Assembly: GCA_964528935.1 (NCBI GenBank)
Contig: CAZGUB010000001.1
Span: forward strand, 1-45,504
Reading direction: 5' to 3'
DNA: 45,504 nt
Origin: an uncultured Flavobacteriaceae bacterium
Lineage (GTDB): Bacteria > Bacteroidota > Bacteroidia > Flavobacteriales > Flavobacteriaceae
The position numbers were made by a program, and so were the translations under genes. The notes under the pieces were generated by a model, which was not told the origin of the DNA, did not search any database, and saw only the letters and a program-made list of their open reading frames with translations. Of this stretch, positions 1 through 27,572 are shown one piece after another (positions within the stretch are counted from its first letter, which is position 1; each line of letters starts with the position of its first letter).

Positions 1-3000
1 CTAATTGACCAGGACTGCTACCTATTACGGTCGCTCTGTTGATTATTTGGCCAGTAAATGCAGTATTTTGAGTAATAATGTAAGATGCCTGATATCTAGC
101 AATTTCACCTGCAACTAGGGTCCCGTCAACTGAATTATTTGAGCTAGATGTGAAAACCATGTTTCCATCATAACTTAAAGTGGTACCATTTCCATCTTGA
201 AGAAGGTCTACTATTCTTATATTATTGATCACTGCATTTCCTGTATTTTCAATAACTATAAGGTATTCAATACGGTCGCCTGTATCTATTTTTGAATTAT
301 TATTTAAATCAAAATGAGTTGAGGACTTAATTATATCAATTGAAAAATCAGTAGATGTAAGAATTATAGTAGGGTCATTAGTTGTGTTTCCATCTGTATC
401 ATCTCCATCATCAGATACGTCAGAAACATCTCCATTATTCCCTGGTGAAGAAGCAATAACAGAAACGGAGTTAATTACGCTACCGGAATTAGCAGCAACT
501 TGCTCAATCGTGTATGAAGTTGTATAGGTTAAAGCTTCTCCTGAACTAATGGTATTATCCGCATCAATGATATTGAAGTTAGATCCCATCTGGGGATGTG
601 CCGAACAATAATAATATAAGTTATCAATACTTTGATCAACTTTTATTTGAACAAATGACCCATTATTTCCAGCAATTCCCTCCACTATTACATTATCTGA
701 ATATTCACTTCCAGCGTTATGGGTCCCATCTGAATTCAAACTCAACCTGAATGGATGACCATTATTACTAGTATCTGACTGGATAAATTTGTAAGTCTTT
801 CCTCTTTCTAAATTAATTTGATTACTCTCAACACCATCTAGAAAATATTTATTTCCTTGTCCAGTATTTGAGACAGTTATTGAGATTTCCCGAATTGTAG
901 TTTCAGTAATTGCTGAGGATAAACTTAATGGATTTCCACTGCCGTCCACAATTGTATCAGTAATTTGAAGATCTGTCAATTCTATGTTACCAGTATTTTG
1001 AACTAAAATTGTGTAGACAATTATATCACCAGCATCATTTGTTTGGTTACCATCGTTTTGAACAACTTCGGCAATCTTAGTTACCTCAATTGATACATCT
1101 GACATTGTCTCAACAACTGTTGGATCATCAACTGTATTTCCATCTGTATCATCACCATCATCTGATACGTCAGTTACATCATTGGTGTTTCCAGGACTAG
1201 AAGCCGTTACAGAAACAGTATTAACTATTCCTCCAGTATTTGCTGAATTTTGATCTATTACATATTGTAGTTCATAAACTAAACTCCCCCCGGCCAATAA
1301 TGTAGCTTGGCTAGAACCATCAGTAGCACTTAGTAAATTTGGATCAGGGGTATTTATTTCATTTCCGTTGTTATCTCTTAACAAATCAGATAAATTAACC
1401 CCACTTAGAGTAACATTACCCGTATTTGTGACGGTTATAGTATATTCGATTAAATCTCCCTGATCGTTCTGACCGTTATTATTCGTATCAATTACATTTG
1501 AGATTTTAGATATTTCAATACTAGGTCTTGGTGTTATTTCAATAACAGTAATATCATCCTCTGTATTACCATCAGTATCATCTCCATCATCCGAGGTATC
1601 ACTAACATTGTTTGTCTGTCCTGGACTACTTGCTATCGCCACAGCTGTATTCCTTATCTCTAGCGTTGCCGCTGCTGCATCTGATATTATATAATAAGCT
1701 ATATAAGTTGCCGTCTCTCCTGCCTGCAGTGTTCCCGTATTTGAACCCCTATCTGATCCAGAGAATGATGGACCTGTACTCATGGTCAAGGCATCCCCAT
1801 TACCATCCGTTATTGTGTCGCTTACCGTTAAACCAGTTAAGGCAACATTCCCTGTATTCTCTACAGTTATAGTATAATTTATCACATCTCCTGCTCCCAC
1901 AAATCCATCTCCCTCATCAGTTACTGTGGCTATCTTAGTTACTTCTATTGCAGGTACCGGATCGATATCTACAACTGTTGCATCATTAGCCTGAGCTGTG
2001 GTCGGATCATCACTCTGATCCGTGACTATATTTGATCCACCTTGACCACTAGCTTGGACAGAAGCTCTATTAATTATTCTTCCAGAATAAGAAGCTTCAT
2101 CAGTTATTGTAAAATTCGCAGTAAAAGTTACAATCCCCGAAATAGCAATAAAGGTTGCGCTGGATCCATTTGTAGCAGAAGCAAAAGTTGGAAGAGTTGT
2201 GAGTGCTAAATTATTAGAGTTTCCATCAGTTAGAATATCAGTAACCAATAAATTCTCAAGAGGAACTCCTCCGGTATTTGTAACACCTATTTGATAATAA
2301 ATAATATCTCCAGAATCAGTTAGATTATTTGCGTTGGTGTCAGATACAGTTGCAGTTTTAATTATTTCAATTGAAGCTTCAGCGGAAGTACTTATTTCAG
2401 TTTTATCATTGAATTCATTACCATCCGTGTCATCTCCGTTATCACTAATGTCACTAACATTTATTCCTCCACCAATTGCGGATACGGTTACTTGGTTTTT
2501 AATTTTTGTAGAGAAAGCAGCTGCAGGTTCGATTGTGTAGGTAGCAGTGTAAGTAGCAATCTCAGAAAATCCTAATTTCCCCTCATTAGAACCATTTGAA
2601 GAGGATACATATGTCGGTCCGCTATCTAGTGATAATTCATTGTCGTTATTATCAGTTAATAAGTCGATAAGTGTAATACCTGTTAAAGTAACATTTCCAG
2701 TATTAACAACTGTAATAGTATAGACAATTGTATCGAGTGGATCATTAACTCCATTTGAGTTATTGTCTAGTACTTGAGCTGTTTTAGTAGCCTCAATTTT
2801 AGGATTGGGAGAAATTTCAACTATTGTTGGATCATCTTCCGTGTTTCCATCTAAATCGTCTCCATTATCTGAAGTGTCAGTAACATTATTTGTTTGTCCT
2901 GGACTACTTGCAGTAGCAATTGCACTATTAGAGATAAATGGTGTCTGGGCTGCAGCAGCTGAAATAAGATAAATAGATGTGTAGGTGTGATATTCCCCTG

Positions 3001-5819: not shown

Positions 5820-8800
5820 GGATCGTCTTGCTGAGCCGTGCTTGGATCATCCGAAGTAGCACTAACTTGTGTTGATCGGATTGTTGTGGCGTTAACAATG
5901 GCTGAATTTCTTATCTCTCCCTTGTCAACCGCTTCTTGATTAATTTGATAAATCCCCGTGACAGTCATAGAACTATTAGAACTCAACGTTCCAATATATT
6001 GTCCAATATTTGCAGATCCTTTAGATTCTGACTGTCCATTAGTGAAAATATAGGGAGTAGCTCCAGCTCCTTGTTCAAGTTGCATACCCCATACATACGT
6101 ATAGGTACCATATACCCCAGGATTAAACCCTACAACTCCATTGGTTGCAAATTGACTAGTAGTAAATACCAGCTCAAATCTTTCAAACTTATTATTAAGC
6201 GAGAAGGTAAAAGTTTTTGATGCTGTTGATGAAGATAAATGGGTAGATTGGGCGCCAAGATTAAATCCTTCATGAGCAAATAAAGTAAAGTTCGTTCCCA
6301 AAGTTCCTTTTGCATAAATTGATAATGTGTAGGTAGTATTTGGTGAAAAAACGTAATTGTGTTCGTAAACTGCACTTGCAGTAGTTCCCCTTACTCCCAT
6401 AGCTCCTATATCAGATGAGGTAACAAGATGACCTCCTCCTGGATCGCTGGTGTTTTTGCTAATGATTCCTCTACCTTCTATCAAATAACCTTCCCACCCC
6501 AGGGAACCTCCAGTTGCACTTAATTGAGCGTTGCTAAACATCCCAGGCCTTAAATAATATTCAATTCCATCAGGTATAGTGTATGGTGTGCCTTGCTCTT
6601 GAATATTTAAGCTTGAAATATTCCCAGATCTATTATTATCGATATTATACGTTGGACCAGTGAGTAAATTAACAGCAGCTTCATCAGTTGCAATTTGTTG
6701 AATTAAATTATTATTGTTAGGATCTTTTAATTCATCTGTTATTGTAAAGTTTGAAACATCTGTATTACCTAGGTTAGTTACTGTGAATTTGTATTTAAGT
6801 ACATCATTTTTATCTATTATTCCATTTCCATTAACATCAATGTGATCATATTCCTTTAACAGGTCAATTCCTGAAACCTCTGGAATTTCAAATACTGTAG
6901 AGTCATCCAATTCTGCAGTATTTGGATCATCAGAAATATCAGTTACAGGTGTAGAAATACCAGAGGGTAAAGCGCTAACAACAATACTGTTTGAAACCAA
7001 CCCCGAATTGACCATAGATTGGTCAAGTGTAATAGATCCTTGTAAAGTAATATATCCTCCAACAAGAATTCTATTAAGGTCTGATCCGTTATTTGAGCCT
7101 GTTTGTGTTAAAGTCGGTGAGGCCAATAAATTATTATTCCCATCTACTATAGTATCTACTAATTGAACATTCAATAAATCAATATTGCCAGTATTTGAAA
7201 CAGTGATTGTATAGGTTATTATGTCTGCAACTCCTATAACTCCATCTCCATTATCACTGGTAAGCTCTACCGATTTAGTAATATTAATTCTTGGATCAGG
7301 ATTTAGTCTCACCTCGGTTTGATCATCCGATATGTTACCATCAGTATCATCCCCATCGTCTGACTTATCATTAATAACTCCTGCAGTTGAACTTGCCGAT
7401 GCAATTACGGAGTTTGCAATAAATGCACTACCCATCATTGTTCCAGTGATCGTCGTAGAGGCAATATATGTTGCAGTCTCACTCACTTGTAATGTCCCCT
7501 CGGGTGAACCAGCTGAAGAGCTAATAAATGTTGGACCTACTAATAAATTGTTATAGTTATTTAAAAAAGAATCGTAAAGAGTATCAGAAAGTGTTAATGA
7601 TGTTAACCTAATATTTCCAGTGTTAGTAACTACAATTGTGTAGGTGATGATATCCCCTGGATCATTTAAGCCATTAGCATTCACATCTGAAACGGTAGCT
7701 GTTTTAGTAACTTCAATTGATGGCAATCGAGTTAGTGTTACAATAGTTGGATCATCACCCGTATCATCTTGACCAGTATCTCCATCATCAGAAACATCTG
7801 TTACAGTCCCGCTTTTTGTGTCTGTTGCAGTAAATACAATTGAGTTAGATAATCCGCCGGACTCTAGATCTTCTTGAGTTACTGTATATGAAACTGTATA
7901 AGTATAAGAAGATCCAACATTTAAATCAGTAATAGTCCCGGAGGAAGTGTTTGATTGTTGTATTACAGAAGAGCCGTCTAGATTAAGTCCGGAATTATAA
8001 AAATACCACCACTCATCACTGTATATACTACCAAACTGATTCTCTTGGGTCTTTCTTAAAATTGCTCCTGTCCATAAATTTTGATAAGTATTAAAAGAAA
8101 AGCCTACAACAGTATTATACTCGTCAATGGTATTCCACTCCCACAGATAATAGCCAAGAGAAGATAGTTGTTCTACCCACCTAGAATAGGTCTTTCCATT
8201 GTATGATGCAAAGTATGAATGACCATTATATTGTCCTAAGAAAGTGACAGTTACCCCTGGTATAGCAATAGAATTCACTAGCTCGTCAACTTCTATAATA
8301 GCTCCATAGCTTGAATAAGAAGGTTGATCCTGAAGTCTTCTATTAGTTGAATTAGTGTAAGTGTATAAATAAGATGCATCATAAGAGTAGCCATTATTTG
8401 GTTCAGAACTATACCATAATGATGTTACGTCTTCTGACTCCAAGCCGCCGACTTGACCTGAAATAGAAGAGGATGAAGTTAAAGTAATTGAAGAGGTCTG
8501 TAATATTAAATCCCCGTCTAACTGAATTAGAGTATCAAAGTATGAAAGATTACTTAAATCTATATTTCCAGTATTAGTGACTGATATTGTAAATATGACA
8601 TCATCCCCTACGCCTATTTCACCATCCAGGTTATTGTCTACAGTTGAATAAGTTTTAACAGCTTCCAGCTCAGGGTCATATAATAAAGACGTTACAGCTG
8701 GATCATCAACAGTATTCCCGTCAGTATCATCTGCATTGTCAGATATATCAGTAACACTTTGCGATCTAGAAGTAATTATTATACTATTTGAAATTACTCC

Positions 8801-11800
8801 TGAATTAATATCATCTTGTGATATAGTATATTCAAATGTAAAACTAAGACTACTTCCTGCAGGAATTATATCTATAGTTTTTGTTTGTTTAGTGAGTTGA
8901 TTTCCTAAAACATCATTCCATCCTTCATCATATGAAATTGAGGAATTGGTTGGATCTGATTTTAATATTCCTGTCCAAAACCAAGTATTTGTATTTAATT
9001 CTTGAACAATCCAATCATGTTCCTCTTGAGAGTTGGGAATATACATATGAGCATCCTCCCCGAAATTATTCTTAAAATTATTATTAATAGAACTAATAGA
9101 ACTATTAAAACCAGAGGTGCCTGTAGACCTGTAATAATAATTATTATCGTAGCTTCCAATAAAAGTATACCCAGCTGGGGTTGCTGGCTGGGAGTTTTGA
9201 TTTTCAATCTCCGCAATATGATAATTTGAATAGCTCTCATAAATATTTCGATATTTTCCCTGATTTACCGAAGGGTTAATCATTACATAATTGTATCCAC
9301 TACTACTAGGCAATGCATTAGAGGATGGATTGCTAGAATCCCAATTTGTAAATGGTGCATTTGAAACTTCAGCAGAGGGATCCTCAGCCTCTAAATACAG
9401 ATCTGGCCCAACACCATATCTATAATCAACTCCATCAATATTCTCTACTGTCCATCCTGTACTATTATAATATGAGTAAATAAAATCTGAAGCAATGGGA
9501 CCTTCTTCAAGTTGAATCCCCCAAAATCTTGAATTACTACTTAAATCATTACCAGGGGGCCGGATACCTACTCTAGCATCTCCATTAATCGTAGAACTCG
9601 TTGTGAAAGTGTAAGTATATCTATTTAGTTCAGCAGTCTGATCTAACTCTATATCCTGAGATTTAAGGGCATTTTCCCAATTATAAGATAAATCAGATCC
9701 ATCGAATACAACAAATTTCCATGGACTATTAACTGCAGCAGCTTTTTTACCATAAACCGATACTGTATATTGAGTATTTGGTTTTAGTCTGACATTTTTA
9801 TAAACATAACAATCTTCACAAGAATTACCACTTCCATTTCTGTAGAGATACCACATGTAAGTGTCATTATCATAATTTTGATTAGTAACACCTGAATCCC
9901 CATCCTGATAATTGGGAAATGTTGAGCTCACATAGCTATCATTTCTATTGTTTAGATGTAAGTAAGGAATTTGTCCATATCCATTATCACCGACAGTACT
10001 TCCATAATTTGTACCTGATTCTGACCAGCCCCATTCATTGTCATCAACCGCCCAACTATATTGAAAATAATTTTGACTTTTTCCCACTAAAGGCTTGATT
10101 TCGATTGATTTTGTTCCCGTAGCGGTTGTCATGATGTCACTCAATTCAAAATCCTCCAAGTTGGTTTGTCCAGTATTAGTAATATTTACCTGATAAGTAA
10201 TAATATCTCCTATATCATTTTCTCCATTACCATTTTCATCTGAAATATTTATTACAAACTTTTCAACTTCAAGACCTTTGGAGTTGTCAAGGTTTACAAT
10301 AGTAGGATCTCCCAACTCGGCGGTATCTGGATCATCACTAACATTTGTAACTACTCCAGATGTCCCACCAGGTGTAATAAAACTTGAGACAATTGTTACT
10401 TGATTTCTTAACTCCTCTGCAGAATCTATCAGCTCTTGAGTAATTTCTATGGTCAAGGAATAAGTTGCTGAACCACCCGGGGGAAGATAGGTTTGTCTTG
10501 GATCAAATGTTCCTACGGTAGTTAGAGAATTAGATTTTGTTATTGGATTATCATAAGTGTATGTGTATATAGGAGAAGGCCCTACGCCCTCTTCAATCTG
10601 AAATCCGTAGAACCACATCCCAGTATTATCATTTCTAGGAGGTGCAATTCCAATCCTATAAAATTGTCCTGGATTCGAGCTACTTAAAAAAGTATGAGAA
10701 AACCTCTTCACTTCAAACTGTGAAAAAGATTTAAGGGGGGATACTTGTGAGTTATCATAATTGGTTATGTAATTAGAATCACTATCACTCCAATTATTAC
10801 CATCATGCCAAATGAATCTGAAACCTTTATAATATTCCGAACCAGTATAGGACGAACTGTTTGGCGTTGCCCATACCGAAACAGTATAATAGGTATTTGG
10901 TTTGATAAGTGCTGGATCAATTTCTTGGTAAAACCATCTTTTTGAATTGCTATCCCCTTCTGAAAAGTTACCAGTAGTATTCCTTAAATTTATAAATCTG
11001 TTAAAATAATTTGAATCAGCTAAATCTGCCATTGAACGCCCATTCCATGAAATATTAGAGGGTAGAATTTGATAACCGTCAACAAATCCTGTATTTGCAC
11101 TTGAAGCTCCTGACAAATCAGAGAAAAAGACCTCTATCCCGGCTGGTTGATAATGAAGTTCGCTATAATAACTTATGTAATTATATCTATCAGATCCTGT
11201 TTTATGCCAATAATTACTATTGAATGAAGCATAACTAAAATTGGAGGATCTTGTAGCTAAATTTTCAAGAGTGATGGTAGATTGAAAGGAGGAACTTTCG
11301 TGTTGCAAATTATAGAATCCTAGGCTTTGATCAAGTTCATTTTTTAATTCATCTGTCATGGAAATCTCTAAATCTACAATTCCCGTATTTGTTATTACAA
11401 TTGAGTAGCTAATTTTATCTCCAACAAGCATAAGACCATCTCCATCAACGTCAATCTCAGTAGCTGATTTTGTTATTGATATTCCTGGAAAAAAACATGC
11501 TACATCATAATTTAATTCTTGGTAATCTTTTATGTTATTTGAATTTGAGTCCAACGGAGTAGTATAACCGTCTGAACCGCTAGTTACTTTTCCCCATCCG
11601 TCTTGAGTGATTGGATTGTTTCCAAGAAGACCATCCCCATCATCATCTGTATAGCCTGCCTCAATGACATCACTACAGCCATCATCATCTGAATCCAACT
11701 CAAAAATGTCCAAAATTGTATCACTATCAGTATCTGTTGGAATAACTAACTCAATTCTGTCATCTGCACCATTAAAATTATCATCCACAAAACCTTGGTC

Positions 11801-14800
11801 ATTTGAATCTAAAACGCCATCATTATTAGAATCTAAAATACCATTTCCCCCCTCTACAAGGTCATATATCCCGTCATTATCTGAATCTAAATCGAAACCA
11901 TTGTCTACTCCATCCTGATCAACATCTCCAAAACAATTTTCTTCTGCGCTTAGTGCTATACCGTCTAATTGAACCGACACATTTTGACCTAAAGCGTAAG
12001 CAGAAATTAATATTGCAATTCTATAGGTATTTGCATCGGTTGTAAATTGAAAGGTGTTTTGCGTCCAATTTGTAGGTGCCTCTGTGAGCTGATCTACTGC
12101 AAAATCTGTATCTAATGATTGAACTTGGAGTAGTGTTGATCCTCCATCCCCATGTGACGCTGTCAGTAAGCCCCCATCTCTATGATAAAATGTTACATTA
12201 TATGTAGTGTTTGGGTAGACAAACTCCTCTACCATTATTCTATCAAATTCTCCTGTTCCAATCGAGCTCTCATCCCAAAATTCTCTGGTATTTGTTGGGC
12301 TAGTAGTCCCTGAGAGGTAGGCATTTTGTAGAAGTTCAATATAGTATTGTCCTTGTTGTGCTGACCATGTGTAATTATTACTATCTGTTCTGCTATCCCA
12401 TACTTCTCCGTCTCCATTTACTGAAGAAAATGGCGGTGCAACAACAGAGTTTGGGTATTGTGAATTTTTATTTTGAGTAGGATTCACAGGGCCATTTTGT
12501 AAATAATAAGATTCAAAGCTATTCCCATCTAATGCAAAATCAATACATTTTTCAAAGCTGTCTAACACCCCATCATTATCATCATCAATATCTAAATTAT
12601 CAGGAATGCCATCACTATCAGTATCAAGTCCTAGTGCAACAAAGGTTGGGTCATCTTCTGTGTTTCCATCATTATCGTCACCATCATCACTTACATCAAT
12701 TGAGTCGAACTCCAGTGGATTTGGATTTCTAAGTGATGATCCAGTTACTCTAACAGAATTATATACTCCTCCTTCCTTTAGTGAAACATCATTAACGGTA
12801 AATGTAGCTGTATAAGTTATTATTCCCCCTGCAGTTAGAGTAGTAGAACTAGAGCCATTAGTTCCACTTGAAAAAGTTGGTGAGGAATTTAGGCTTAAGG
12901 TCTTTCCCCTTGCAGAAGTTAAAGTATCCTCTAGAGTTATATTTTCAATTGTGTCATTTGAAGTATTAGATATTGTAATTGTAAATACAATCAAATCAGA
13001 TATGTCATCTCCTACGTTACCATTATCAATCTTAGTTGCAGTTTTTACCACTTTGAAAGAGGGCAATACACCTGTATAACTTATTGTTTTATCGTCTTCA
13101 AGGTTATCATCATTATCATCACCATCATCAGAAAGATCTTGAGCTCTAATTTCGGCTGGTTGTGAAAGTCCATTTGGATAGTAATAACTTATAACCTCAG
13201 CCTGATTCATAACTCCTCCGATTGTTTCATCTTGAGCAGTTACAGTATAATTGACTGTCCAAGTTGCAACTTCCCCAGAGATAAGAGTTCCTTGAGGGGA
13301 GCCAAGCGAGTTAGATTGAAAGTTTAATCCGCTGTCAAGAGATCTTGCATTGCCTTGAATATCGGTAATTACATCATTAATAAAGATTGATCTAAGAGTT
13401 ATGTTACCCGTGTTTGTTGCTCGTATAGTGTAGGTCAGGATATCTCCCTGCGAGATCACTCCATCACCATCTAAATCATTATTTACTACTGTTTTTACTA
13501 CATCTAAACTTGGGGTTGATTGTATTTCATAAACTGTTGGATCATCTCCTGTGTCTCCTACGCCAGTATCTCCATCATCACTAGTGTCATTAACAAAAAT
13601 ATTATTCGATAGATTTGCAGCGATAACAATAACAGAATTACTAACACCCCCATTATCAACATTGGACTGAGTGAGAACATAGTCAAGAGTATATGTTTTA
13701 ACTTGACCAGGCGCTAAAATATTGGGATCATTAGTTGTTGGTGAGGATAACAAAGCAAGATTATTTCCCAGTAAATCCGTTAAAGTTTCAGTAAGGATAA
13801 AGTCTTTTAAAGATTGATTACCTGTGTTTGTAATTTGAATCTCATATCTTAAGGTATCTCCATTTCCAATTTCTCCATCATTATCATTATCAATTCCTTG
13901 AACAGTTTTGGTAACTACAATTGATGGGCTTCCTATTAGAGGTGTTTCCACCGTGTTAGAAGTAGCAGTAACAGTTGATGTACTTCCTGTTCCTGTGGGA
14001 GCAATACCAATTACAGAAGCCACGTTTGATAATCCTCCATAATCTAGAGCAAGCTGGTCTATAGTATAGGAAATTCTATAGTCTGCTCTTTCACCTACTA
14101 AAAGTGTTTCAGAATCAGAATCGATTGTGTCACCTATAAAAGTTAAAGATTCCGTAAAAGATAGTTGACCTGTTTCAAGACCAGAGAGCGAGTCATTAAT
14201 TGAAAGTTGAGAGATGTCAACATTCCCTGTGTTACTTATTTGAATAGTATAAGTTACTATGTCTCCAATATCCGTGAGGTTATTATTGTTAACATCAGTA
14301 ATCGATGCAGTTTTAGATATTACAAGTTCTGGAACTGCATCTATAATAAATTCAGTAGGGTCATCAAATAAATTTCCATCAGTATCATTACCATCATCAC
14401 TTAAATCTTGAACGGCAGTTAATGTTGGATCAAGCATTGTAATAGATGCCTGATTAGAAATTCCTCCATTATTTATTGCCTGTTGATTTACAAGAAATGT
14501 TGCTATAAAAGTTGCCGTCTCTCCAGGTGCAATAACACCATATGAGGATCCGGCACTATTATTTGAAAAATTAAAGCTAGTAAGGGTTGGTGTATATTGT
14601 CCTGAAATGGTAGTAAAAATATCCTCAATAACTAAAGACCCTCCCCCTCCTCCAGGTGATCCTAATGTATTATTTCCGGTATTCTCAATTGTTATAGTAT
14701 AGTTTACTAAATCGCCAGATGATAATTCACCATCTGAGTCATTATCGGTATATGACTGAGTTTTTACAACTTCGATTGACGGATCAGGAGTGATGGGAGT

Positions 14801-17521
14801 TATAGTTGGGTCATCGGTTGTATCTCCGTCTAGATCGTCCCCGTCATCACTATCGTCGGATACCCAGGTTCCGTCTGGGTCTTGTCCTCTTATTTCAATT
14901 GTATTTTGAAATCCTGTCTGATCAATTGCCTGTTGGTTAACTGTAAAAGATGCAGTATATGTTGCTGATTCCCCTACCTGCAAAGTCCCTTCAGGCGATC
15001 CTCCTGAAGAGCTTACAAAAGCCACAGTATTATTGTTTAAATTAAGCGAGATCCCTCTAATACCTGAGAGCTGATCATCTAAAATTAAATTTGTTAAAAC
15101 TGTATTTCCCGTATTGGTGACAGTAATGGTATAAATCGCAGTGTCTCCTATTTGAATTTTGCTAGGATCTGCCTGAGTAAGTTCAACTGTTTTGGTGACA
15201 TCAAGCTCTCCGTCGAAGGTTAATAATACTTCAGTAGGGTCAGAATTCAAATTTCCGTCTGTATCATCTCCGTTATCACTAACATCTGTTACTTGGTTAT
15301 TTGCCGCACTTACATCATCTGCAACTACTGTAACTTGATTATTCAACAGCCCTGCATTCATATCATCAGCATTTACGGTATGTGTCGCAGTCCAACTTGC
15401 TATTTCTCCTGCTTGAAGGTGAAATGAATCAGAACCAGCTGTAGCACTTTCAAATGTTGGCCCGCTGTCCAATGGAACACTTGTAGTTCCAACACCATGA
15501 TTTTGTACATCAGTAAGGTTGATGTTTTCAAGGGTAATATTCCCTGTATTAATAACTTGAATGTAATAACTAATTACATCTCCTATGCTGGGCCTTCCAT
15601 CCCCATTATCGTTTAATACATAAGTTTTTACAACTTCAATTCCAGGCTGAACATTTAAGGCGGTAATGGTTGGATCATTAGTAGTATTTCCATCAGTATC
15701 AATTCCATCATCACTCAAATCAAAAACATCTGGCTCTGCTAAATTAGGATCTGATTTAGCGGTAACTGTAACCTGATTGGAAATTGAACCAGTTGCCTCA
15801 TCATTAGCTGTAATTATATATTGAGCTGTGTAAGTATAACTCTGGCCTGGTTGTAGTGGATTATTATAAGTAGGGTTAATTGCAGTGTTATAAGTCAATA
15901 CTGTTCCAGAGCCGTTTGTAAGAGCATCCTCAAAACTAATATCTGATAAAGCTATTTGCCCCGTGTTTAATACAGTTATTGTGTAAGTTATCGGATCACC
16001 TGGACCAATTTCACCATCAGCACCATTATCTACAACTGCTATTTTTGTTACTTCAACAGATTTAACAATTGTAACATCTACATCTGTAGAATCATCTTCT
16101 GTATTTCCATCATTATCAATTCCGTCATCACTAGTATCGGAAACATCACCGGTTAGATTTGGACTATCTCCCGTTGCTATTACTGAGTTTATTACCCTAC
16201 CTGAATTCGCCGCTGAGGCCTCAATTATATAACTTGCAATATATGTTTCTATTTCACCTACAGCTATTTCACCTTGTATATTAGAAATTGTTGATGAGCT
16301 AAAAGTGGGTCCTGAGCTTAGGGTTAAATTATTTCCATTAAAGTCCGTTAACTGATCATTAAGGCTAAGATTATCAATAGTAACATTTCCTTTGTTTTCA
16401 ATTAAAATCACATAATTTATTACATCTCCTACGTCATTTACGTTATTGTTATTTAAATCATCTACATTTGAAATCTTGGTTACTTCTAATATAGGGGAAT
16501 GGGGTAAATCAACATCAACACACTGATCTAAACTATCAGAGATAACAACTCCGGTTGACTCTGCAATTGCTTGAGCGGTTAAACAGTTTGTTAAATTTCC
16601 AGAATCAATTGCTTGTTGATCTAATACAAAAACAGCAGAATAATTGATTTCTTCACCGACAACTAATGTACCAGTGGTTGTTCCATTCCAAGTTCCATTA
16701 TTTTCAAGTCTTGAAATATTGCCATATGAAGAAGATTCAAAAACTGGTGATGGGGGTGTAAAGGGGGCGTCTAAAGGAACTGATCGACCGCCTCCGTCTC
16801 TCAGATCATCATCAGGCGCAACCGAAATTAGTTCTTGATAACCATCATTTAAAATGGTGACTATGTAATGGATTCTATCACCAACTGAGTATATACCATC
16901 GCCATCTACATCCTCATATCTATCAAAAATCTTATTAACTTCGATAGAAGCGATGTCATCATCCTTGGAAATTATATTAGGGTCATCCTCTGTATTACCG
17001 TCAGTATTATTTGCATCATCACTTGTGTCGCTAACATTAACATTGTCCGCACTAATTGCCTCGCCTAAAACAGAAAATGACAACCCCAAAATATTTTGAA
17101 TATCACTAAATTGATAAGAAGCCTTGTATGTTTCTTGTTCGCCGGGGATCAAAAATCCTGACGCATTTGATGCAGTGGAATCAAAATATGTGATTGATTG
17201 GACAAGGCTCAATATTGAGTTATCAATACCGAGCAAAGTTGATGATAATACTAAGCTATTTAGATTAATATTCCCCTTATTTGTTACAACTATCGTAAAG
17301 TTTACCTCATCTCCCTCGCTAATTATTCCATCAGGACTTCCTGGATTATCTATAACGTTAGTAAATATTTTTACTTCAAGCTCTCTGTTGATTTGAGATT
17401 GAATATTTTGAAAATTTAAAAGAAAAACGATTAAGAAAATGGGAGAGAAGGATATGAGGAGCTTCTTACTATTTAAAAAAGTCCCTTTAAACAGATCTCT
17501 GAAAAGATTGTTTTTAACCAT
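1..17521 (-). CDS. Giant secreted repetitive surface protein/adhesin, 3'-partial (at least 5,840 codons; C-terminus lies beyond the left edge). It has a signal peptide, about 30 DUF11/TIGR01451-like 'conserved repeat' units with Ca-binding-type acidic linkers, and nested lectin-like modules.
   Basis: Hand translation of the minus strand from ATG 17521-17519 gives MVKNNLFRDLFKGTFLNSKKLLISFSPIFLIVFLLNFQNIQSQINRELEVKIF... I followed this frame (codon top coordinate = 1 mod 3) down to position 2 and found no stop. The consensus GDxIxYTIxVxNTGNVxL...GxLxxGExxxYxAxYxIxQ...SDxSDDGxDxDGNTxDDPT recurs every ~420-440 nt. The ORF track lists no minus-strand ORF in this frame, consistent with one open frame running off the window. 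Confidence 0.95.
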   Translation of the reverse strand, partial: MVKNNLFRDLFKGTFLNSKKLLISFSPIFLIVFLLNFQNIQSQINRELEVKIFTNVIDNPGSPDGIISEGDEVNFTIVVTNKGNINLNSLVLSSTLLGIDNSILSLVQSITYFDSTASNASGFLIPGEQETYKASYQFSDIQNILGLSFSVLGEAISADNVNVSDTSDDANNTDGNTEDDPNIISKDDDIASIEVNKIFDRYEDVDGDGIYSVGDRIHYIVTILNDGYQELISVAPDDDLRDGGGRSVPLDAPFTPPSPVFESSSYGNISRLENNGTWNGTTTGTLVVGEEINYSAVFVLDQQAIDSGNLTNCLTAQAIAESTGVVISDSLDQCVDVDLPHSPILEVTKISNVDDLNNNNVNDVGDVINYVILIENKGNVTIDNLSLNDQLTDFNGNNLTLSSGPTFSSSTISNIQGEIAVGEIETYIASYIIEASAANSGRVINSVIATGDSPNLTGDVSDTSDDGIDNDGNTEDDSTDVDVTIVKSVEVTKIAVVDNGADGEIGPGDPITYTITVLNTGQIALSDISFEDALTNGSGTVLTYNTAINPTYNNPLQPGQSYTYTAQYIITANDEATGSISNQVTVTAKSDPNLAEPDVFDLSDDGIDTDGNTTNDPTITALNVQPGIEVVKTYVLNDNGDGRPSIGDVISYYIQVINTGNITLENINLTDVQNHGVGTTSVPLDSGPTFESATAGSDSFHLQAGEIASWTATHTVNADDMNAGLLNNQVTVVADDVSAANNQVTDVSDNGDDTDGNLNSDPTEVLLTFDGELDVTKTVELTQADPSKIQIGDTAIYTITVTNTGNTVLTNLILDDQLSGIRGISLNLNNNTVAFVSSSGGSPEGTLQVGESATYTASFTVNQQAIDQTGFQNTIEIRGQDPDGTWVSDDSDDGDDLDGDTTDDPTITPITPDPSIEVVKTQSYTDNDSDGELSSGDLVNYTITIENTGNNTLGSPGGGGGSLVIEDIFTTISGQYTPTLTSFNFSNNSAGSSYGVIAPGETATFIATFLVNQQAINNGGISNQASITMLDPTLTAVQDLSDDGNDTDGNLFDDPTEFIIDAVPELVISKTASITDVNNNNLTDIGDIVTYTIQISNTGNVDISQLSINDSLSGLETGQLSFTESLTFIGDTIDSDSETLLVGERADYRISYTIDQLALDYGGLSNVASVIGIAPTGTGSTSTVTATSNTVETPLIGSPSIVVTKTVQGIDNDNDGEIGNGDTLRYEIQITNTGNQSLKDFILTETLTDLLGNNLALLSSPTTNDPNILAPGQVKTYTLDYVLTQSNVDNGGVSNSVIVIAANLSNNIFVNDTSDDGDTGVGDTGDDPTVYEIQSTPSLDVVKTVVNNDLDGDGVISQGDILTYTIRATNTGNITLRSIFINDVITDIQGNARSLDSGLNFQSNSLGSPQGTLISGEVATWTVNYTVTAQDETIGGVMNQAEVISYYYPNGLSQPAEIRAQDLSDDGDDNDDNLEDDKTISYTGVLPSFKVVKTATKIDNGNVGDDISDLIVFTITISNTSNDTIENITLEDTLTSARGKTLSLNSSPTFSSGTNGSSSTTLTAGGIITYTATFTVNDVSLKEGGVYNSVRVTGSSLRNPNPLEFDSIDVSDDGDDNDGNTEDDPTFVALGLDTDSDGIPDNLDIDDDNDGVLDSFEKCIDFALDGNSFESYYLQNGPVNPTQNKNSQYPNSVVAPPFSSVNGDGEVWDSRTDSNNYTWSAQQGQYYIELLQNAYLSGTTSPTNTREFWDESSIGTGEFDRIMVEEFVYPNTTYNVTFYHRDGGLLTASHGDGGSTLLQVQSLDTDFAVDQLTEAPTNWTQNTFQFTTDANTYRIAILISAYALGQNVSVQLDGIALSAEENCFGDVDQDGVDNGFDLDSDNDGIYDLVEGGNGILDSNNDGVLDSNDQGFVDDNFNGADDRIELVIPTDTDSDTILDIFELDSDDDGCSDVIEAGYTDDDGDGLLGNNPITQDGWGKVTSGSDGYTTPLDSNSNNIKDYQELNYDVACFFPGISITKSATEIDVDGDGLMLVGDKISYSIVITNTGIVDLEISMTDELKNELDQSLGFYNLQHESSSFQSTITLENLATRSSNFSYASFNSNYWHKTGSDRYNYISYYSELHYQPAGIEVFFSDLSGASSANTGFVDGYQILPSNISWNGRSMADLADSNYFNRFINLRNTTGNFSEGDSNSKRWFYQEIDPALIKPNTYYTVSVWATPNSSSYTGSEYYKGFRFIWHDGNNWSDSDSNYITNYDNSQVSPLKSFSQFEVKRFSHTFLSSSNPGQFYRIGIAPPRNDNTGMWFYGFQIEEGVGPSPIYTYTYDNPITKSNSLTTVGTFDPRQTYLPPGGSATYSLTIEITQELIDSAEELRNQVTIVSSFITPGGTSGVVTNVSDDPDTAELGDPTIVNLDNSKGLEVEKFVINISDENGNGENDIGDIITYQVNITNTGQTNLEDFELSDIMTTATGTKSIEIKPLVGKSQNYFQYSWAVDDNEWGWSESGTNYGSTVGDNGYGQIPYLHLNNRNDSYVSSTFPNYQDGDSGVTNQNYDNDTYMWYLYRNGSGNSCEDCYVYKNVRLKPNTQYTVSVYGKKAAAVNSPWKFVVFDGSDLSYNWENALKSQDIELDQTAELNRYTYTFTTSSTINGDARVGIRPPGNDLSSNSRFWGIQLEEGPIASDFIYSYYNSTGWTVENIDGVDYRYGVGPDLYLEAEDPSAEVSNAPFTNWDSSNPSSNALPSSSGYNYVMINPSVNQGKYRNIYESYSNYHIAEIENQNSQPATPAGYTFIGSYDNNYYYRSTGTSGFNSSISSINNNFKNNFGEDAHMYIPNSQEEHDWIVQELNTNTWFWTGILKSDPTNSSISYDEGWNDVLGNQLTKQTKTIDIIPAGSSLSFTFEYTISQDDINSGVISNSIIITSRSQSVTDISDNADDTDGNTVDDPAVTSLLYDPELEAVKTYSTVDNNLDGEIGVGDDVIFTISVTNTGNIDLSNLSYFDTLIQLDGDLILQTSSITLTSSSSISGQVGGLESEDVTSLWYSSEPNNGYSYDASYLYTYTNSTNRRLQDQPSYSSYGAIIEVDELVNSIAIPGVTVTFLGQYNGHSYFASYNGKTYSRWVEQLSSLGYYLWEWNTIDEYNTVVGFSFNTYQNLWTGAILRKTQENQFGSIYSDEWWYFYNSGLNLDGSSVIQQSNTSSGTITDLNVGSSYTYTVSYTVTQEDLESGGLSNSIVFTATDTKSGTVTDVSDDGDTGQDDTGDDPTIVTLTRLPSIEVTKTATVSDVNANGLNDPGDIITYTIVVTNTGNIRLTSLTLSDTLYDSFLNNYNNLLVGPTFISSSAGSPEGTLQVSETATYIASTTITGTMMGSAFIANSVIASASSTAGVINDKSDDGDDTDGNISDDQTEVRLNPDPRINITKSVELTSDNGDGVIGVADIITYTITVSNTGNIDLLNVQLVDTIVDGNNNLLASPTLTQTGSNNGSDLNRILVGGYITLQGSITLDQSMVNSGLVSNSIVVSALPSGISTPVTDISDDPNTAELDDSTVFEIPEVSGIDLLKEYDHIDVNGNGIIDKNDVLKYKFTVTNLGNTDVSNFTITDELKDPNNNNLIQQIATDEAAVNLLTGPTYNIDNNRSGNISSLNIQEQGTPYTIPDGIEYYLRPGMFSNAQLSATGGSLGWEGYLIEGRGIISKNTSDPGGGHLVTSSDIGAMGVRGTTASAVYEHNYVFSPNTTYTLSIYAKGTLGTNFTLFAHEGFNLGAQSTHLSSSTASKTFTFSLNNKFERFELVFTTSQFATNGVVGFNPGVYGTYTYVWGMQLEQGAGATPYIFTNGQSESKGSANIGQYIGTLSSNSSMTVTGIYQINQEAVDKGEIRNSAIVNATTIRSTQVSATSDDPSTAQQDDPTVTQIEAISLLEVEKTAVVQDINNDQKINLNDLISYTITISNTGETTITGLTLTDIFENSLGEQLNYTAPPIRVSASAGSPIGTIIPGEVLVYSAQFTINQDAFKTPFVSNSLIVTGDSKGQSANVSDTSDDGDDEDGNTEDDPTITIMEPDGKIEATKTYEIIDSDGDGETSVGDVIRFIITIENAGNTILTSITLEDVLVDDDDNPLSLNDGPYFISASQSSTLGTLQIGESAVYRAIFIINDQAFNSGGVKNYVQVTASSPFGVDDVNDISDDGIDNDGNTEDDLTEVPLFAAAQISVIKTATVFDGVEDGVVGSGDTINYIITIENTGITSVGTLTLVDTITDANGGVLALTSGPTYENGSSSQGSAEGSLAPGETTRYRASYVIQEAAALTGSIINTVTVSATSNLDGTIVVDISDDNDDTDGNVLDDPTIINIDLTPQIEVSKTATVTQNNGNNIIDLGDSIDYTITISNTGNVNLNNLSLNDIITDYNGLDLTLTSSPSFVSGTDATATSIDVNGVAIFEARFTINQQSVDAGGVSNQVLVSASSVLDVTSVASATSDDPSTVEQNDPTNININVLAELEVSKTASLTDLDGNGVASLGDRITYSIVVSNTGGLTLRDVTIQDILTDGNGNSYSFDNPPSLVSGSPNQFLVGEQIEYQADLIIDQNAIDSGSLINQATIIASSPGNSLNVSDTSDDPTTIDSDDPTAISFTSSPSLLVEKTVSVTDNGDNKLGKGDILQYDISIQNTGDITLSNITVSDTLTDGTGALLNMSSGLFYAGSNRGSPQGYLIPGEIVNYIGFFIVNQQAVDSGQVSNVAQAFGTTPQGVTVDDLSDDPNTVTPEDPTAVSITTTPSLEVTKTVSVTDSSGDGVIGQNDLIYYTIKVENNGEQTLTGISIQEILTDGNGQVLNLLNGPTYDGLNGSKGSPQGTALPGEYHTYTSIYLISAAAAQTPFISNSAIATASSPGQTNNVTDTSDNGDDLDGNTEDDPTIVEISPNPKIEATKTAQVLDNNSNGVNDPLDTIVYTITVVNTGNVTLTGITLIDLLTDNNDNELSLDSGPTYVSSSNGSNEGKLGFSEIATYTATYTIEPAAAFSTKIKNQVTVSAIGGGINVSDISDNGDDTDGNEFNDKTEISTSAEASIEIIKTATVSDTNANNLTDSGDIIYYQIGVTNTGGVPLENLLVTDILTDGNSNNLALTTLPTFASATNGSSATFIAISGIVTFTANFTITDEASYSGRIINRASVQASGQGGSNIVTDQSDDPTTAQANDATVVDIDPVPAIEVTKIATVTDEGDGFVGAGDVINYTITVENTGNVALTGLTVSDTITDGNGDALTMSTGPSFSGSDRGSNTGTLQAGETATYIAYYIISDAAAATLEIRNTAVAIASSPGQTNNVSDTSDDGDDTDGNTEDDITVIEITPRPSIEISKISNVIDTNNNGQNDQGDLIEYTITVTNTGNVTLSGVNLSDLLRDNNGNEINTPDPNLLSATDGSSQATLLAGGSLVYELQYVIDQNSANTGGIVNTVSVTASSPGNTNDVTDVSDDGDDTDGNTVDDPTVVETMSDVSIEVTKIAEVVQNDGNQTNDAGDIIVYTILVQNTGNIELTDLQITDTIVDGSGNPLSLSSAITETTIREISITVSNTGQGNKYFLDGVESNQINLERGKTYKFIQSDTSNNGHPFRLSLNSDGTHNAGSEYSDNVIVEGIAGNNGSFVQIKVDQSIDNLYYYCSAHPQMGSNFNIIDADNTISSGEALTYTTSYTIEQVAANSGSVINSVSVIASSPGNNGDVSDVSDDGDDTDGNTTNDPTIILTSTDFSIDIIKSSTHFDLNNNSKIDTGDRIEYLIVIENTGNAVINNIRIVDLLQDGNGTTLSYDGNMVFTSSSNNSVDGTLVAGEIARYQASYIITQNTAFTGQIINRATVIGSSPGQL
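575..900 (-). other. Cupredoxin-like (type-1-copper-site-like) insert
   Basis: ISITVSNTGQGNKYFLDGVESNQINLERGKTYKFIQSDTSNNGHPFRLSLNSDGTHNAGSEYSDNVIVEGIAGNNGSFVQIKVDQSIDNLYYYCSAHPQMGSNFNI. Candidate ligand set: His (755-757), then 50 residues on, Cys (605-607)-x2-His (596-598)-x2-Met (587-589). Confidence 0.5.
6000..6640 (-). other. Jelly-roll/lectin-like insert A
   Basis: ...SAVYEHNYVFSPNTTYTLSIYAKGTLGTNFTLFAHEGFN...KTFTFSLNNKFERFELVFTTSQFATNGVVGFNPGVYGTYTYVWGMQLEQGAGATPYIFTNG, followed by the host-unit tail MTVTGIYQINQEAVDKGEIRNSAIV. Confidence 0.6.
7970..8445 (-). other. C-type-lectin-like insert 2 (retains an EPN tripeptide)
   Basis: SLWYSSEPNNGYSYDASYLY...YGAIIEVD...VTFLGQYNGHSYFASYNGKTYSRWVEQLSSLGYYLWEWNTIDEYNTVVGFSFNTYQNLWTGAILRK...IYSDEWWYFYNSG. 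The EPN codons are at 8396-8404, in frame. Confidence 0.5.
8900..9360 (-). other. C-type-lectin-like insert 1
   Basis: FTNWDSSNPSSN...GYNYVMIN...YHIAEIEN...AGYTFIGSYDNNYYYRSTGTSGF...GEDAHMYIPNSQEEHDWIVQELNTNTWFWTGILKSD...DEGWNDV. This resembles CTLD hallmarks as I remember them (Y-x-S, I-x-S-x-x-E-x-x-F/W, W-I/T-G, G-x-W-N-D). Confidence 0.5.
9470..10095 (-). other. Jelly-roll/lectin-like insert E
   Basis: QNYFQYSWAVDDNEWGW...CYVYKNVRLKPNTQYTVSVYGKKAAAVNSPWKFVVFDGSD...NRYTYTFTTSSTINGDARVGIRPPGNDLSSNSRFWGIQLEEGPIASDFIYSY. It shares the PNTxYTxS and WGxQLEEG motifs with inserts D and A. Confidence 0.6.
10550..11320 (-). other. Jelly-roll/lectin-like insert D
   Basis: ...RWFYQEIDPALIKPNTYYTVSVWATPNSS...GFRFIWHDGNNW...FSQFEVKRFSHTFLSSSNPGQFYRIGIAPPRNDNTGMWFYGFQIEEGVGPSPIYTYTY. 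It lies between ITNTGIVDLEISMTDEL and the unit tail GGSATYSLTIEITQELIDSAEELRNQV. Confidence 0.6.
11480..12640 (-). other. Central hub: a thrombospondin-type-3-like Asp-rich Ca-binding run, a Cys-bracketed jelly-roll (CBM/DUF642-like) domain, then a second, longer TSP3-like run
   Basis: Translated: LDTDSDGIPDNLDIDDDNDGVLDSFEKC-IDFALDGNSFESYYLQNG...WSAQQGQYYIELLQNAY...YNVTFYHRDGG...NTYRIAILISAYALGQNVSVQLDGIALSAEENC-FGDVDQDGVDNGFDLDSDNDGIYDLVEGGNGILDSNNDGVLDSNDQGFVDD...DTDSDTILDIFELDSDDDGCSDVIEAGYTDDDGDGLLG. Confidence 0.7.
12641..17392 (-). repeat. N-terminal array of 11 tandem DUF11-like units (~140-150 aa each, diverged at DNA level)
   Basis: Acidic linker markers such as SDDGIDNDGNTEDD and SDDGIDTDGNTTNDPT lie near 16980, 16090, 15670, 15235, 14810, 14355, 13530, 13090 and 12650. 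Boundaries near 16520 and 13950 are degenerate. Core motif examples: GDPITYTITVLNTGQIAL, GDVINYVILIENKGNVTI. Confidence 0.8.
17393..17521 (-). other. N-terminal signal peptide of the giant protein
   Basis: MVKNNLFRDLFKGTFLNSKK (basic n-region), LLISFSPIFLIVFLL (hydrophobic core), then NFQNIQSQ. Confidence 0.7.
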
Positions 17522-17611: not shown

Positions 17612-17619
17612 CAAAATTA
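17612..17619 (-). promoter_or_regulatory. Candidate Bacteroidota -7 promoter box (TAnnTTTG) upstream of the giant gene
   Basis: The minus strand reads TAATTTTG about 91 nt upstream of the ATG. No properly spaced -33 TTTG is present (the nearest is only 7 nt away), so support is weak. Confidence 0.25.
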
Positions 17620-19755: not shown

Positions 19756-20652
19756 CTAGAAATTAAATTTTCTAGAAATCGAAATATTAAGATAATTGTG
19801 TCTTTTGGTTTTTTGTAAACGAGTGTCTTGTGAAATACTACTTACAATGGATCTAATAACATATTTAGAAATGTATACCATAACTCCTATTTCAAATTTG
19901 TTTTTCAAAAAAACAGGGTCAAAAACAAAAGGTGTTTCACTATCAAATAAACTTCCAGAAATCATAAAATCATGAAAACGATATTCTTGACTACTACCAA
20001 AATAGATTGCATATCCATTTTTATTGTTTACAATAGGGCTCTCAAAAAAAGATAATATCGGTAGGTTACCCAGTAAAAAACCAATACTCCCTCCCAAATT
20101 AATACGCTGGGTTCCTAAAGTTCCAAAGTACTCATAAAGGAACGCTAACCTAGGGCTCAAATCCCATCGTCTCCTAAAAATAATATTTATGTTTAAATGA
20201 ATTCTTTCAGGAACAGCTTGCTCCCAGCTAACCTCGCGCAGGCCTAGGACATTTTTGTGATAAAGGTTTTGAAGATAGGGCGCAAGAGATGCCCTGCCTG
20301 TAACACCAAACTTAAAAGACAAGTTCATGGCCCGATTTGAAGAATAGTAGTTTTCTTCTAGTCGCTCCAAAAACAACCACCCACCATATGGGTAATCAAA
20401 GCTCTCCACATCAGTGCTATAACGATTTGAAGGAGTGAAAATTTCTTGTCCCAAAGTCCAATGAACATATTTTTTGAAATAATCATCTCGATTAAAATCT
20501 CTTTTTTCAGCTCCAGAACTGATAAAAACGCCACTTGAATAATAACGATCCGAGCCGAAATATAGGTCATTATCCACCGAAAGGTTTAGGTATTGCTGGG
20601 CCAAGCATGGGCAATAAATGAACATCAAAATGATAATCCCTAAAATTCTCAT
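19756..20652 (-). CDS. Outer-membrane LpxR-like (DUF2219, lipid A 3'-O-deacylase family) protein
   Basis: Signal peptide MRILGIIILMFIYCPCLAQ (ATG at 20652; the track start at 20670 is a TTG). Family-like motifs: NLSVDNDLYFGSDRYYSSGVFIS, WTLGQEIFTPSN, DYPYGGWLFL. Ends in the aromatic residue F, typical of a beta-barrel protein. Confidence 0.65.
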   Translation of the reverse strand: MRILGIIILMFIYCPCLAQQYLNLSVDNDLYFGSDRYYSSGVFISSGAEKRDFNRDDYFKKYVHWTLGQEIFTPSNRYSTDVESFDYPYGGWLFLERLEENYYSSNRAMNLSFKFGVTGRASLAPYLQNLYHKNVLGLREVSWEQAVPERIHLNINIIFRRRWDLSPRLAFLYEYFGTLGTQRINLGGSIGFLLGNLPILSFFESPIVNNKNGYAIYFGSSQEYRFHDFMISGSLFDSETPFVFDPVFLKNKFEIGVMVYISKYVIRSIVSSISQDTRLQKTKRHNYLNISISRKFNF

Positions 20653-27221: not shown

Positions 27222-27572
27222 ATGAAATTACGATGCATTTTACTACTGTTTTGTGTTTAATTTTCTTTTGCACAGATTTACAACAACCACGCCCAACTGA
27301 TGGCCCAAGGGGTTTCCGGTCAGTGGAAGGAGGGTGCGGTGGTTTTGAACGACGGCCGGACCTTGGAAGGACAAGCCCAAGGCCAAACCTACAAAGGAAA
27401 CGATGTTCAGTCGTTACTCTACCGAAAAGAAAAAGGCACCCATGCGGTGACTAACAAGGCCGACGATTACCCTCAGGTGATCTACGACGGCCTGAATGTG
27501 GTGGCCTGCAGCGTCCCCGCCGGCGGCACTCGAGGCCTTGGGATCTTGGTACACCGACAGCTTTTTGCCTAA
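27222..27572 (+). pseudogene. Small secreted hypothetical protein interrupted by an in-frame TAA within its signal peptide
   Basis: ATG 27222 gives MKLRCILLLFCV, then TAA (27258-27260), then FSFAQIYNNHAQL, running in the same frame into track ORF 27300..27572 (MAQGVSGQWKEGAVVLNDGRTLEGQ...). Confidence 0.5.

Follow-up and report, generated by a model that had tools for sequence, protein, structure and literature searches.

The DNA examined here, referred to as the window, is a 45,504-nucleotide stretch of contig CAZGUB010000001.1 from an uncultured Flavobacteriaceae bacterium (GenBank assembly GCA_964528935.1), and its left end is taken up by a giant gene for a probable secreted adhesin. Read on the minus strand from an ATG at 17521, a single frame (2..17521) runs for 5,840 codons and is still open at the window edge, with its stop codon outside the window. 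The gene occupies 38% of the window (17,521/45,504). Directly upstream on the same strand lies a candidate regulator gene (17690..19429), followed by the gene for an LpxR-like outer-membrane protein (19756..20652) and 18 further genes between 20,765 and 45,504. A sequence-only reading of the window had proposed the giant frame although the supplied list of open reading frames (ORFs) appeared to show only shadow ORFs of 60-111 aa in this region. Translation from 17521 down to position 2 gave zero stops, exactly thirteen such shadow ORFs were found in 1..17521, and the giant ORF is missing because the listing program omits ORFs that run off the sequence end, as that reading had supposed.

At the base composition of the gene, stop codons are expected at ~6% of codons, and the probability of 5,840 stop-free codons is ~e^-363; the frame is therefore not a product of chance. 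Eleven codons upstream of the ATG the frame is closed by a stop, and the same start was picked by an independent gene caller in other assemblies of the locus (start 16832 in L001 corresponds to window position 17521). At least four further assemblies, made from different samples, contain the locus (ENA ERZ27275810, ERZ23498582 and ERZ27257198; Logan SRR15213103), and these were 99.6-99.99% identical to the window and practically gap-free. A stop or frameshift in other sequence data had been named as grounds for abandoning the frame, and none was present over up to 3,277 codons in these four assemblies; the longest comparison contained 15 synonymous and 18 non-synonymous substitutions. Contig ends cut the gene in every assembly, at 828, 1,620, 5,211 and 5,745 codons, and in two of them the called products of 5,211 and 5,745 aa each reach their own contig end. 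Since the gene meets a contig end in all assemblies, it must be longer than any contig shows.

Collapse or expansion of the repeat array during assembly was the second way in which the frame might have misled. The repeat units of the window gene are old and diverged, with a mean pairwise amino acid identity of 35.5% and a maximum of 55%. Exact DNA words repeated within the gene reach 20 nt at most, the top blastn match inside it covers 90 nt at 78%, and no tandem DNA repeats were detected in the gene by Tandem Repeats Finder. Copies this diverged are not confusable by an assembler, and together with the four concordant assemblies this makes collapse or expansion unlikely. As far as it is visible, the giant gene is real and intact.

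To describe the array, a hidden Markov model (HMM) was built from one unit and then iterated. It gave 35 matches, which represent 30 units of ~142 aa: 24 intact, five split by inserts and one cut by the window edge. This agrees with the ~30 copies of a ~143-aa unit proposed earlier, and the consensus holds the motifs described at that time (...GD.I.YTItV.NTGN.tL... and ...VsD.SDDGDDtDGNT). The units are joined by an acidic linker, VsD.SDDGDDtDGNT..DDPT, which we take to be a calcium-binding DxDxDG-type motif. Eleven tandem units with SDDGDDtDGNT-DDPT linkers form an N-terminal stalk (12659..17410, minus strand, as are all features of the gene; aa 38-1621), two intact units lie at 6905..7753 (aa 3257-3539), and a distal stalk of eleven intact units follows at 1133..5824 (aa 3900-5463). 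The thirtieth unit (2..376, aa 5716-5840) has reached only model position 124 of 143 when the window ends.

The units belong to a known family of stalk domains. Matches to DUF7507 (PF24346) were the strongest, with E=8e-144 and 2.5e-196 and 469.8 and 638.6 bits against a cut-off of 27, in 12 + 19 stretches. DUF11 (PF01345; 156.7 and 171.4 bits, cut-off 24.6) and TIGR01451 (173 and 265 bits, cut-off 24) also scored well above threshold, and weaker matches to DUF7619 and DUF7927, which belong to the same group, overlapped those to DUF7507 and DUF11. All three of these main models had been suggested from sequence alone; two others suggested with them, TSP3 and Calx-beta, had no match. DUF11 and DUF7507 were renamed CLIPPER and CLIPPER_2 in a 2025 survey that describes them as fibrillar-adhesin stalk domains, and a Lys-Asp-Asn isopeptide bond has been shown for a CLIPPER-type family (PDB 9IFR; PMC12617251). 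Nearly all units of the window protein keep the triad that forms this intramolecular bond in the family: of the 30 units in the HMM alignment, 29 have Lys17, 27 have Asp57 and 29 have Asn114. Lys and Asp lie 40 positions apart, as they do in the published DUF7507 example, Lys72/Asp112 (PMC12617251).

The array proved less uniform than first described. While the ~30 units stand, it is interrupted between aa 1622 and 3899, where a non-repeat module and nested lectin-type domains had gone unseen. Module A (11498..12658; aa 1622-2008, 387 aa) consists of DxDxDG-rich acidic repeats around a beta-rich core with a weak likeness to the carbohydrate-binding module (CBM)-like inserts described below. 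It is placed between units 11 and 12 and is not nested in a unit. Module A is also the best conserved part of the protein, with 73% identity to its counterpart in the single-cell genome AG-914-G02, and is present in 30/245 relatives. Searches of Pfam, NCBIfam and PDB sequences with module A gave no match of note; a 27-residue BamM match was spurious. Polyubiquitin, the source of the top PDB matches to the A1 profile, was rejected as a 28-residue chance match multiplied by polyubiquitin's own repeats.

Five units are split by inserts, which together carry three CBM4/9-like modules, two C-type-lectin-like modules and one 51-aa element, and which group into families that recur in relatives. The unit with insert B spans 10316..11497, with the insert at aa 2101-2316 (nt 10574-11221) flanked by HMM halves 11-83 and 68-139. 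The next (8711..10309) carries insert C at aa 2492-2844 (nt 8990-10048), in which a CBM-like module, C1 (aa 2492-2690), precedes a C-type-lectin-like module, C2 (aa 2691 to ~2886). Insert D (aa 3040-3166, nt 8024-8404, within 7760..8704) is a C-type-lectin-like module that extends to ~aa 3190, and insert E (aa 3650-3812, nt 6086-6574, within 5825..6904) is the third CBM-like module. The last split unit (383..1126) contains the 51-aa insert F, RGKTYKFIQSDTSNNGHPFRLS... (aa 5573-5623, nt 653-805), which matched no family in Pfam or NCBIfam. This element, RGKTYKFIQSDTSNNGHPFRLSLNSDGTHNAGSEYSDNVIVEGIAGNNGSF, is kept in ten relatives.

Each insert occupies the loop that connects the catalytic Asp of the triad to its bond-forming Asn. 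In a 15-sequence alignment of split units, K14, D53 and N369 are invariant despite an insert of ~200 residues between D53 and N369. This invariance across the insert makes it almost certain that both parts of a split unit form a single CLIPPER_2 domain. In an AlphaFold2 (AF2) model of the split unit with insert B, both half-units were predicted as beta-strands with a pLDDT of ~85.

Inserts B, C1 and E share the motif PNTxYT(V/L)S(V/I)(W/Y) and form one module family (type I). By profile, and for B also by predicted fold, they are like the beta-sandwiches of CBM4, 9 and 16 and of the gene transfer agent (GTA) head spike fibre. Insert E matched Pfam CBM_4_9 (PF02018) with E=3.3e-5 and 24.7 bits, below the cut-off of 25.9, and there was no match of inserts B and C to this model. 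As the gathering score is not reached, we describe these modules as CBM4/9-like and not as members of the family. Against NF048003, a phage head spike fibre domain, B, C1 and E scored 29.3, 37.6 and 33.8 bits, with C1 alone above the cut-off of 36. The split unit with insert B was modelled at a pLDDT of 73.9, and Foldseek matched the insert B model to CBM16 (2zey) and CBM4-2 (4bj0/2y64). Multi-domain Foldseek matches of model 1 to CDTb and GH101 were discarded as composite alignments (template modelling (TM) score ~0.2, root-mean-square deviation >20 Å). A Reprolysin_4 match in a Pfam scan of single inserts was spurious. The head spike fibre of the Rhodobacter capsulatus GTA (RcGTA) binds capsular polysaccharide (PMC10218006).

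The second module family (type II) comprises C2 and D. Its profile matched carbohydrate-recognition domains, including Mincle, DC-SIGN, CD69 and others, at ~1e-9, and 5/12 of its members matched Pfam Lectin_C, the best at 1.7e-12. Tested against a lectin-module HMM built without window sequences, the window copies scored 1.2e-24 (C2) and 8e-20 (D). We therefore call C2 and D C-type-lectin-like but divergent, as their homology to matching relatives is strong though their own scores stay below the Pfam threshold. In C2 (~8,860-9,450), D (~7,950-8,430) and the relatives P0011, P0024 and P0039, the 'W..(E/Q)P(N/D)' part precedes the beta1/alpha1/alpha2 part, and re-permuting the sequences improved the Pfam Lectin_C score over the native order in 3/3 pairs (13.6->18.8, 16.9->18.5 and 21.3->26.2 bits). 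On the basis of their sequence order, these inserts are possibly circularly permuted. The tripeptide also varies among lectin-like copies (EPN, QPD, LPN, YPD and NPS, with EPN in D), as would be expected if sugar specificity differs between them.

The N-terminus is a predicted Sec signal peptide (17396..17521, aa 1-42), as had been proposed, with a basic n-region followed by the hydrophobic core LLISFSPIFLIVFLLNF and a predicted cleavage site IQS|QIN that would leave an N-terminal Gln. The core is 17 residues long (aa 21-37), with a Kyte-Doolittle maximum of 2.79 at aa 21-35, and no further hydrophobic segments were found on this scale in the 5,840 aa. Orthologues keep an '(A/S)x(S/A)|Q' site: AFS|Q in P0001 and in the AG-914-G02 locus (L014), SWS|Q in P0011 and LTA|Q in P0013. 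The predicted S|Q cleavage is consistent with the 'Q-rule' that describes signal peptidase I substrates of Bacteroidetes (PMC5837995).

The 3' end of the gene was sought beyond the window. No near-identical overlap past the window edge was found with the last 500 aa (proteins) or the last 400 aa (GTDB genomes and JGI metagenomes), and none of the contigs that carry the neighbouring genes extends past it. The last 1,200 aa, searched exhaustively, likewise gave no continuation; the highest identity, 74%, was to a 231-aa fragment. A collinear ORF in AG-914-G02 runs for 5,347 codons without a stop and by then has reached only window aa 3963; it is 56% identical over window aa 17-2473 and then 50% identical, with an extra duplicated block of ~1,370 aa. 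In a sister species sequenced with long reads, a walk through P0001, P0026 and P0051 showed that the gene continues as frameshifted fragments to a contig end. These frameshifts fall mid-unit, at positions that vary from assembly to assembly, as indel errors would. One sister-species ORF aligned to window aa 4443-5838 at 55.6% and then continued for at least 892 further residues, and two joined assemblies gave a soft figure of ~9,400-10,400 codons with no end reached. The visible ORF thus appears, by comparison with these relatives, to be the 5' two-thirds or less of the gene.

Recent block duplications are present in the gene in the sister-species loci L101-L103 (1.7-3.4 kb at 82-96% DNA identity, with three 4.8-kb copies in L103), and two of the sister-species assemblies differ by ~3 kb in a recently duplicated block. 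The window gene, unlike L101-L103, has no recent large block duplications. Repeat number in the family evolves via multi-unit block duplication, and the duplicated blocks make length extrapolation from the sister species unreliable. With the last 1,200 residues as query, 7,642 cluster representatives of the family fall within E<=1e-3, of which 902 also pass E<=1e-30. The earlier remark that proteins this large are uncommon holds in general but not within this family, where the lengths of 37 among the top 150 cluster representatives lie between 5,000 and 7,892 aa.

Relatives also point to a route of export. All six of the complete, more distant relatives with module A end in TIGR04131 (38-61 bits, cut-off 35), a type-B CTD (C-terminal domain) of the T9SS (type IX secretion system), and PF13585 was found in 39/120 relatives. 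Because of these two observations, we consider T9SS export of the giant protein likely. A precedent for a giant adhesin with a type-B CTD is SprB, which SprF holds at the cell surface (PMC9143113). The only T9SS or gliding-type gene seen in the window is gldH, 7 kb from the giant gene.

The gene directly upstream (17690..19429) encodes a protein of 560-579 aa with TPR repeats (Pfam TPR_12, 1.1e-10), one transmembrane helix (~aa 396-420) and a C-terminal LuxR/GerE-type helix-turn-helix (HTH). AG-914-G02 has a homologue of this regulator directly upstream of its orthologous giant ORF (31% identity, E=3e-50), and the TPR/LuxR-type protein probably controls expression of the giant gene. In the same AG-914-G02 locus (L014 nt 1-2,546), a second, partial LuxR-type HTH ORF, 116 aa of it in the locus, lies beside the full-length regulator. 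The spacer between the regulator and the giant gene in the window is 168 bp and AT-rich. It contains a candidate Bacteroidetes-type -7 box, TAATTTTG (TAnnTTTG; 17612..17619, minus strand), 91 nt 5' of the ATG, which was read by eye and is a weak lead. No terminator was found between the two genes, and sigma-70 promoter and terminator scans were at background.

This part of the window differs sharply in composition from the rest. The giant gene has a G+C content at third codon positions (GC3) of 22%, the regulator of 23% and lpxR of 30%, versus 44-66% for the other 18 genes. The step is abrupt, at ~20,700, which is where homology to relatives without the giant gene fails. Three close relatives (L104-L106), in which PBP1a is >=90% identical and the flanking DNA ~90-95% identical, keep the RecA...GldH-PBP1a-PTPS-ECH-LpxR neighbourhood without the regulator and the giant gene; in place of these two, lpxR is followed by small ORFs and by genes for an acetyltransferase, LysE and an M3 peptidase. 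DNA identity to these relatives is ~90% down to 20,700, falls from 81% to 55% across lpxR, and is gone by 19,715, which places the border of the variable block in or at the 5' end of lpxR (~20,700). The window lpxR is a divergent low-GC allele (Pfam LpxR, 4.6e-36) whose product is 64% identical to those of L104-L106. A chimeric assembly as the cause of the GC step was rejected, as the junction is common to four independent assemblies. Since the regulator and giant gene are absent from close relatives at the same site, the block is accessory: the regulator, the giant gene and the divergent lpxR make up a low-GC, strain-variable island. From the sequence pattern, a lower-GC relative probably donated the block, together with a foreign lpxR allele, through homologous recombination.

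Taken together, we think it likely that the window encodes a giant, probably T9SS-exported, isopeptide-stapled fibrillar adhesin of a marine flavobacterium, with CBM-like and C-type-lectin-like modules. The assignment to an uncultured marine population of Flavobacteriia/Flavobacteriaceae follows the names given to RecA and PBP1a proteins that are >=90% identical to those of the window. The Sec signal peptide is followed by a stalk of at least 30 CLIPPER_2/DUF7507 immunoglobulin (Ig)-like units, in which, on this model, isopeptide bonds, together with calcium on the acidic linkers, would give a stiff stalk resistant to force and proteases. In the split units, the Lys-Asn staple would join the two halves, so that tension along the stalk bypasses the side-mounted lectin modules, which may bind polysaccharides on algae, particles or other cells. 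Expression would be controlled by the adjacent transmembrane TPR/LuxR-type protein.

Several observations weigh against parts of this interpretation, which should be read with some caution. For the heads, the Foldseek matches that suggest a CBM-like fold are modest (TM ~0.5 relative to target). C2 scored 13.6 bits against Pfam PF00059 in native order and 18.8 when re-permuted, short of the cut-off of 22.6, and D gave no match to this model in either order. AF2 modelled the lectin-bearing unit weakly (pLDDT 64.6), and a fold search with this model returned nothing significant; 9IFR ranked second for this model (model 2), with a non-significant E=0.037. For secretion and anchoring, the step rests wholly on more distant relatives: no type-B T9SS domain (TIGR04131/PF13585) was found in six-frame translations of the window, L014 or L101-L103, all of which stop short of the C-terminus, while the same HMM matched 72/245 relatives. 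For regulation and acquisition, the GerE match of the regulator (3.3e-4) is below cut-off, and no such regulator adjoins the giant gene in the sister-species locus L101. The L101 orthologue is also lower in GC3 than its flanks (25-30% versus 33-40%), which indicates that low GC3 is partly intrinsic to the gene.

A more elaborate version of the adhesin reading is tentative. It holds that lectin modules are deliberately nested between the catalytic Asp and the bonding Asn of stapled stalk units, so that the covalent staple would carry load past each module, giving a single polypeptide of >9,000 aa with several glycan-binding heads of differing specificity; that the C-type-lectin-like heads are circularly permuted; and that the gene and its regulator are exchanged as a cassette between flavobacterial lineages via lpxR recombination. 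If true, lpxR-mediated exchange of the cassette would diversify attachment specificity.

Among the alternatives to a static adhesin, the most durable, though unlikely, is that the protein is a mobile gliding adhesin like SprB, a type-B CTD cargo moved along the surface by the gliding machinery, with movement more than attachment as its role. SprB of Flavobacterium johnsoniae is a 669 kDa, strongly repetitive protein with a T9SS type-B CTD that is held at the surface by the PorP-like SprF (PMC9143113). Relatives of the window protein are annotated with a 'gliding motility-associated C-terminal domain', with PF13585/TIGR04131, but type-B CTDs also occur on non-motile cargo (PMC9143113). The proximity of gldH could be taken in the same direction, yet gldH keeps its position in relatives without the island and is therefore not linked to the giant gene. 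No sprF/porP-like gene was visible in the window, although the region 3' of the giant gene lies outside it, and the lack of the gene at the same site in close relatives fits an accessory adhesin better than core motility. The likeness to SprB is that of a giant repetitive flavobacterial surface protein whose relatives end in TIGR04131/PF13585; the difference is that the window gene is accessory.

We consider it improbable, and somewhat less credible than a gliding role, that the protein is a structural coat, sheath or aggregation-matrix protein or a shed extracellular polymer in which the lectin-like modules serve self-association; DUF11 proteins have a structural role of this sort in certain archaeal sheaths and S-layers. 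DUF11 repeats do occur in archaeal S-layer porins and in Methanothermobacter cell-aggregation proteins (PMC12617251), and the window protein is very long with no transmembrane segment. However, a main coat protein is unlikely to come from a single-copy, strain-variable gene of at least 9,000 codons, a stalk that bears carbohydrate-binding and lectin modules has the layout of fibrillar adhesins, and relatives carry a surface-anchoring T9SS domain.

Least probable is that the open frame is an artefact or a dead gene, whether from a chimeric or mis-expanded metagenome assembly or as a decaying pseudogene open by luck: each assembly does break within the gene, sister-species copies are shattered into many ORFs, two of these assemblies are discordant by ~3 kb within a duplicated block, and the sharp GC step could mark a chimeric join, but 5,840 stop-free codons are beyond chance, four assemblies from different samples agree without indels and with the GC step included, no DNA repeat inside the window gene exceeds 90 nt at 78% identity, the AG-914-G02 orthologue is open for at least 5,347 codons at 50-56% amino acid identity, and the sister-species breaks shift mid-unit from one noisy long-read assembly to another, as indel errors do.

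The adhesin reading can be set against known systems. The window protein resembles CLIPPER/CLIPPER_2 adhesins (PMC12617251) in its HMM matches, tandem stalk, signal peptide and triad with the same Lys-to-Asp spacing, and its relatives combine the repeats with adhesive and sorting domains. It differs from them in size (at least 5,840 aa visible, with orthologues of ~9,000 aa or more) and in that its lectin-type modules are nested between Asp and Asn within stalk units and not placed at the tip. A precedent for such nesting is the Gram-positive pilus-tip adhesin GBS104 (PDB 3TXA), in which the GBS104-like_Ig domain is split into residues 137-211 and 587-717 (Table 1, PMC12617251). There, too, a binding domain is inserted in an isopeptide-bonded Ig-like domain and the cross-link spans the insertion, but the domain family and the type of inserted domain are different, the pili are sortase-assembled and not a single giant polypeptide, and there is one insertion versus five here.

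The CBM-like modules compare with CBM4/9/16/22 modules and the RcGTA head spike fibre (NF048003; PDB 6TB9; PMC10218006), which B, C1 and E resemble by profile and B also by predicted fold. Known members bind polysaccharides; the window modules sit on a stalk repeat and not on an enzyme or virion, and except for C1 their scores are at or below the family cut-offs. Kordia antarctica encodes a 16,944-aa Calx-beta protein with deviating G+C (PMC7477175), which is likewise a very long single-family repeat protein with a base composition off the genome norm. The window repeats are CLIPPER_2 and not Calx-beta, and the accessory status of the window gene is shown by an empty site.

The domain family, giant size and likely secretion route are already documented for relatives, and the locus does not overturn current understanding. 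With a family of 7,642 clusters that includes many giants, and with giant genes of deviating G+C already known, the protein class is common. What is notable is the set of five nested modules, the possible circular permutation of the lectin-like ones, and an empty site that gives clean evidence of an adhesin-plus-regulator cassette. Marine Flavobacteriia play a major part in the consumption of algal polysaccharides and particles, and their attachment is poorly characterised. The locus offers a clean 17.5-kb reading, free of errors, of a gene class that is usually broken or corrupted in assemblies, and in it stalk units, lectin-type modules and a co-inherited regulator are arranged in a defined way. 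That close relatives have an empty site shows that adhesins of this type belong to the flexible genome, and the nested-module design could inform how isopeptide-stapled stalks present binding domains.

A few observations concern the remainder of the window. Searches of the window for tRNAs and Rfam families gave no matches. The housekeeping genes include a sulfatase gene (27,663-29,150) and a BNR/sialidase-like gene (39,475-40,575), with no evident link to the giant gene. A second variable spot lies at ~27,506-27,631, between sulfatase and rhodanese genes, where relatives (L104, 2,436-6,848) have ~4.4 kb that the window lacks. This extra segment encodes a 583-aa ORF, a 501-aa Spond_N/cadherin-like protein, a HIRAN protein and a 231-aa ORF, and an inverted match of 116-132 bp is present at the junction.

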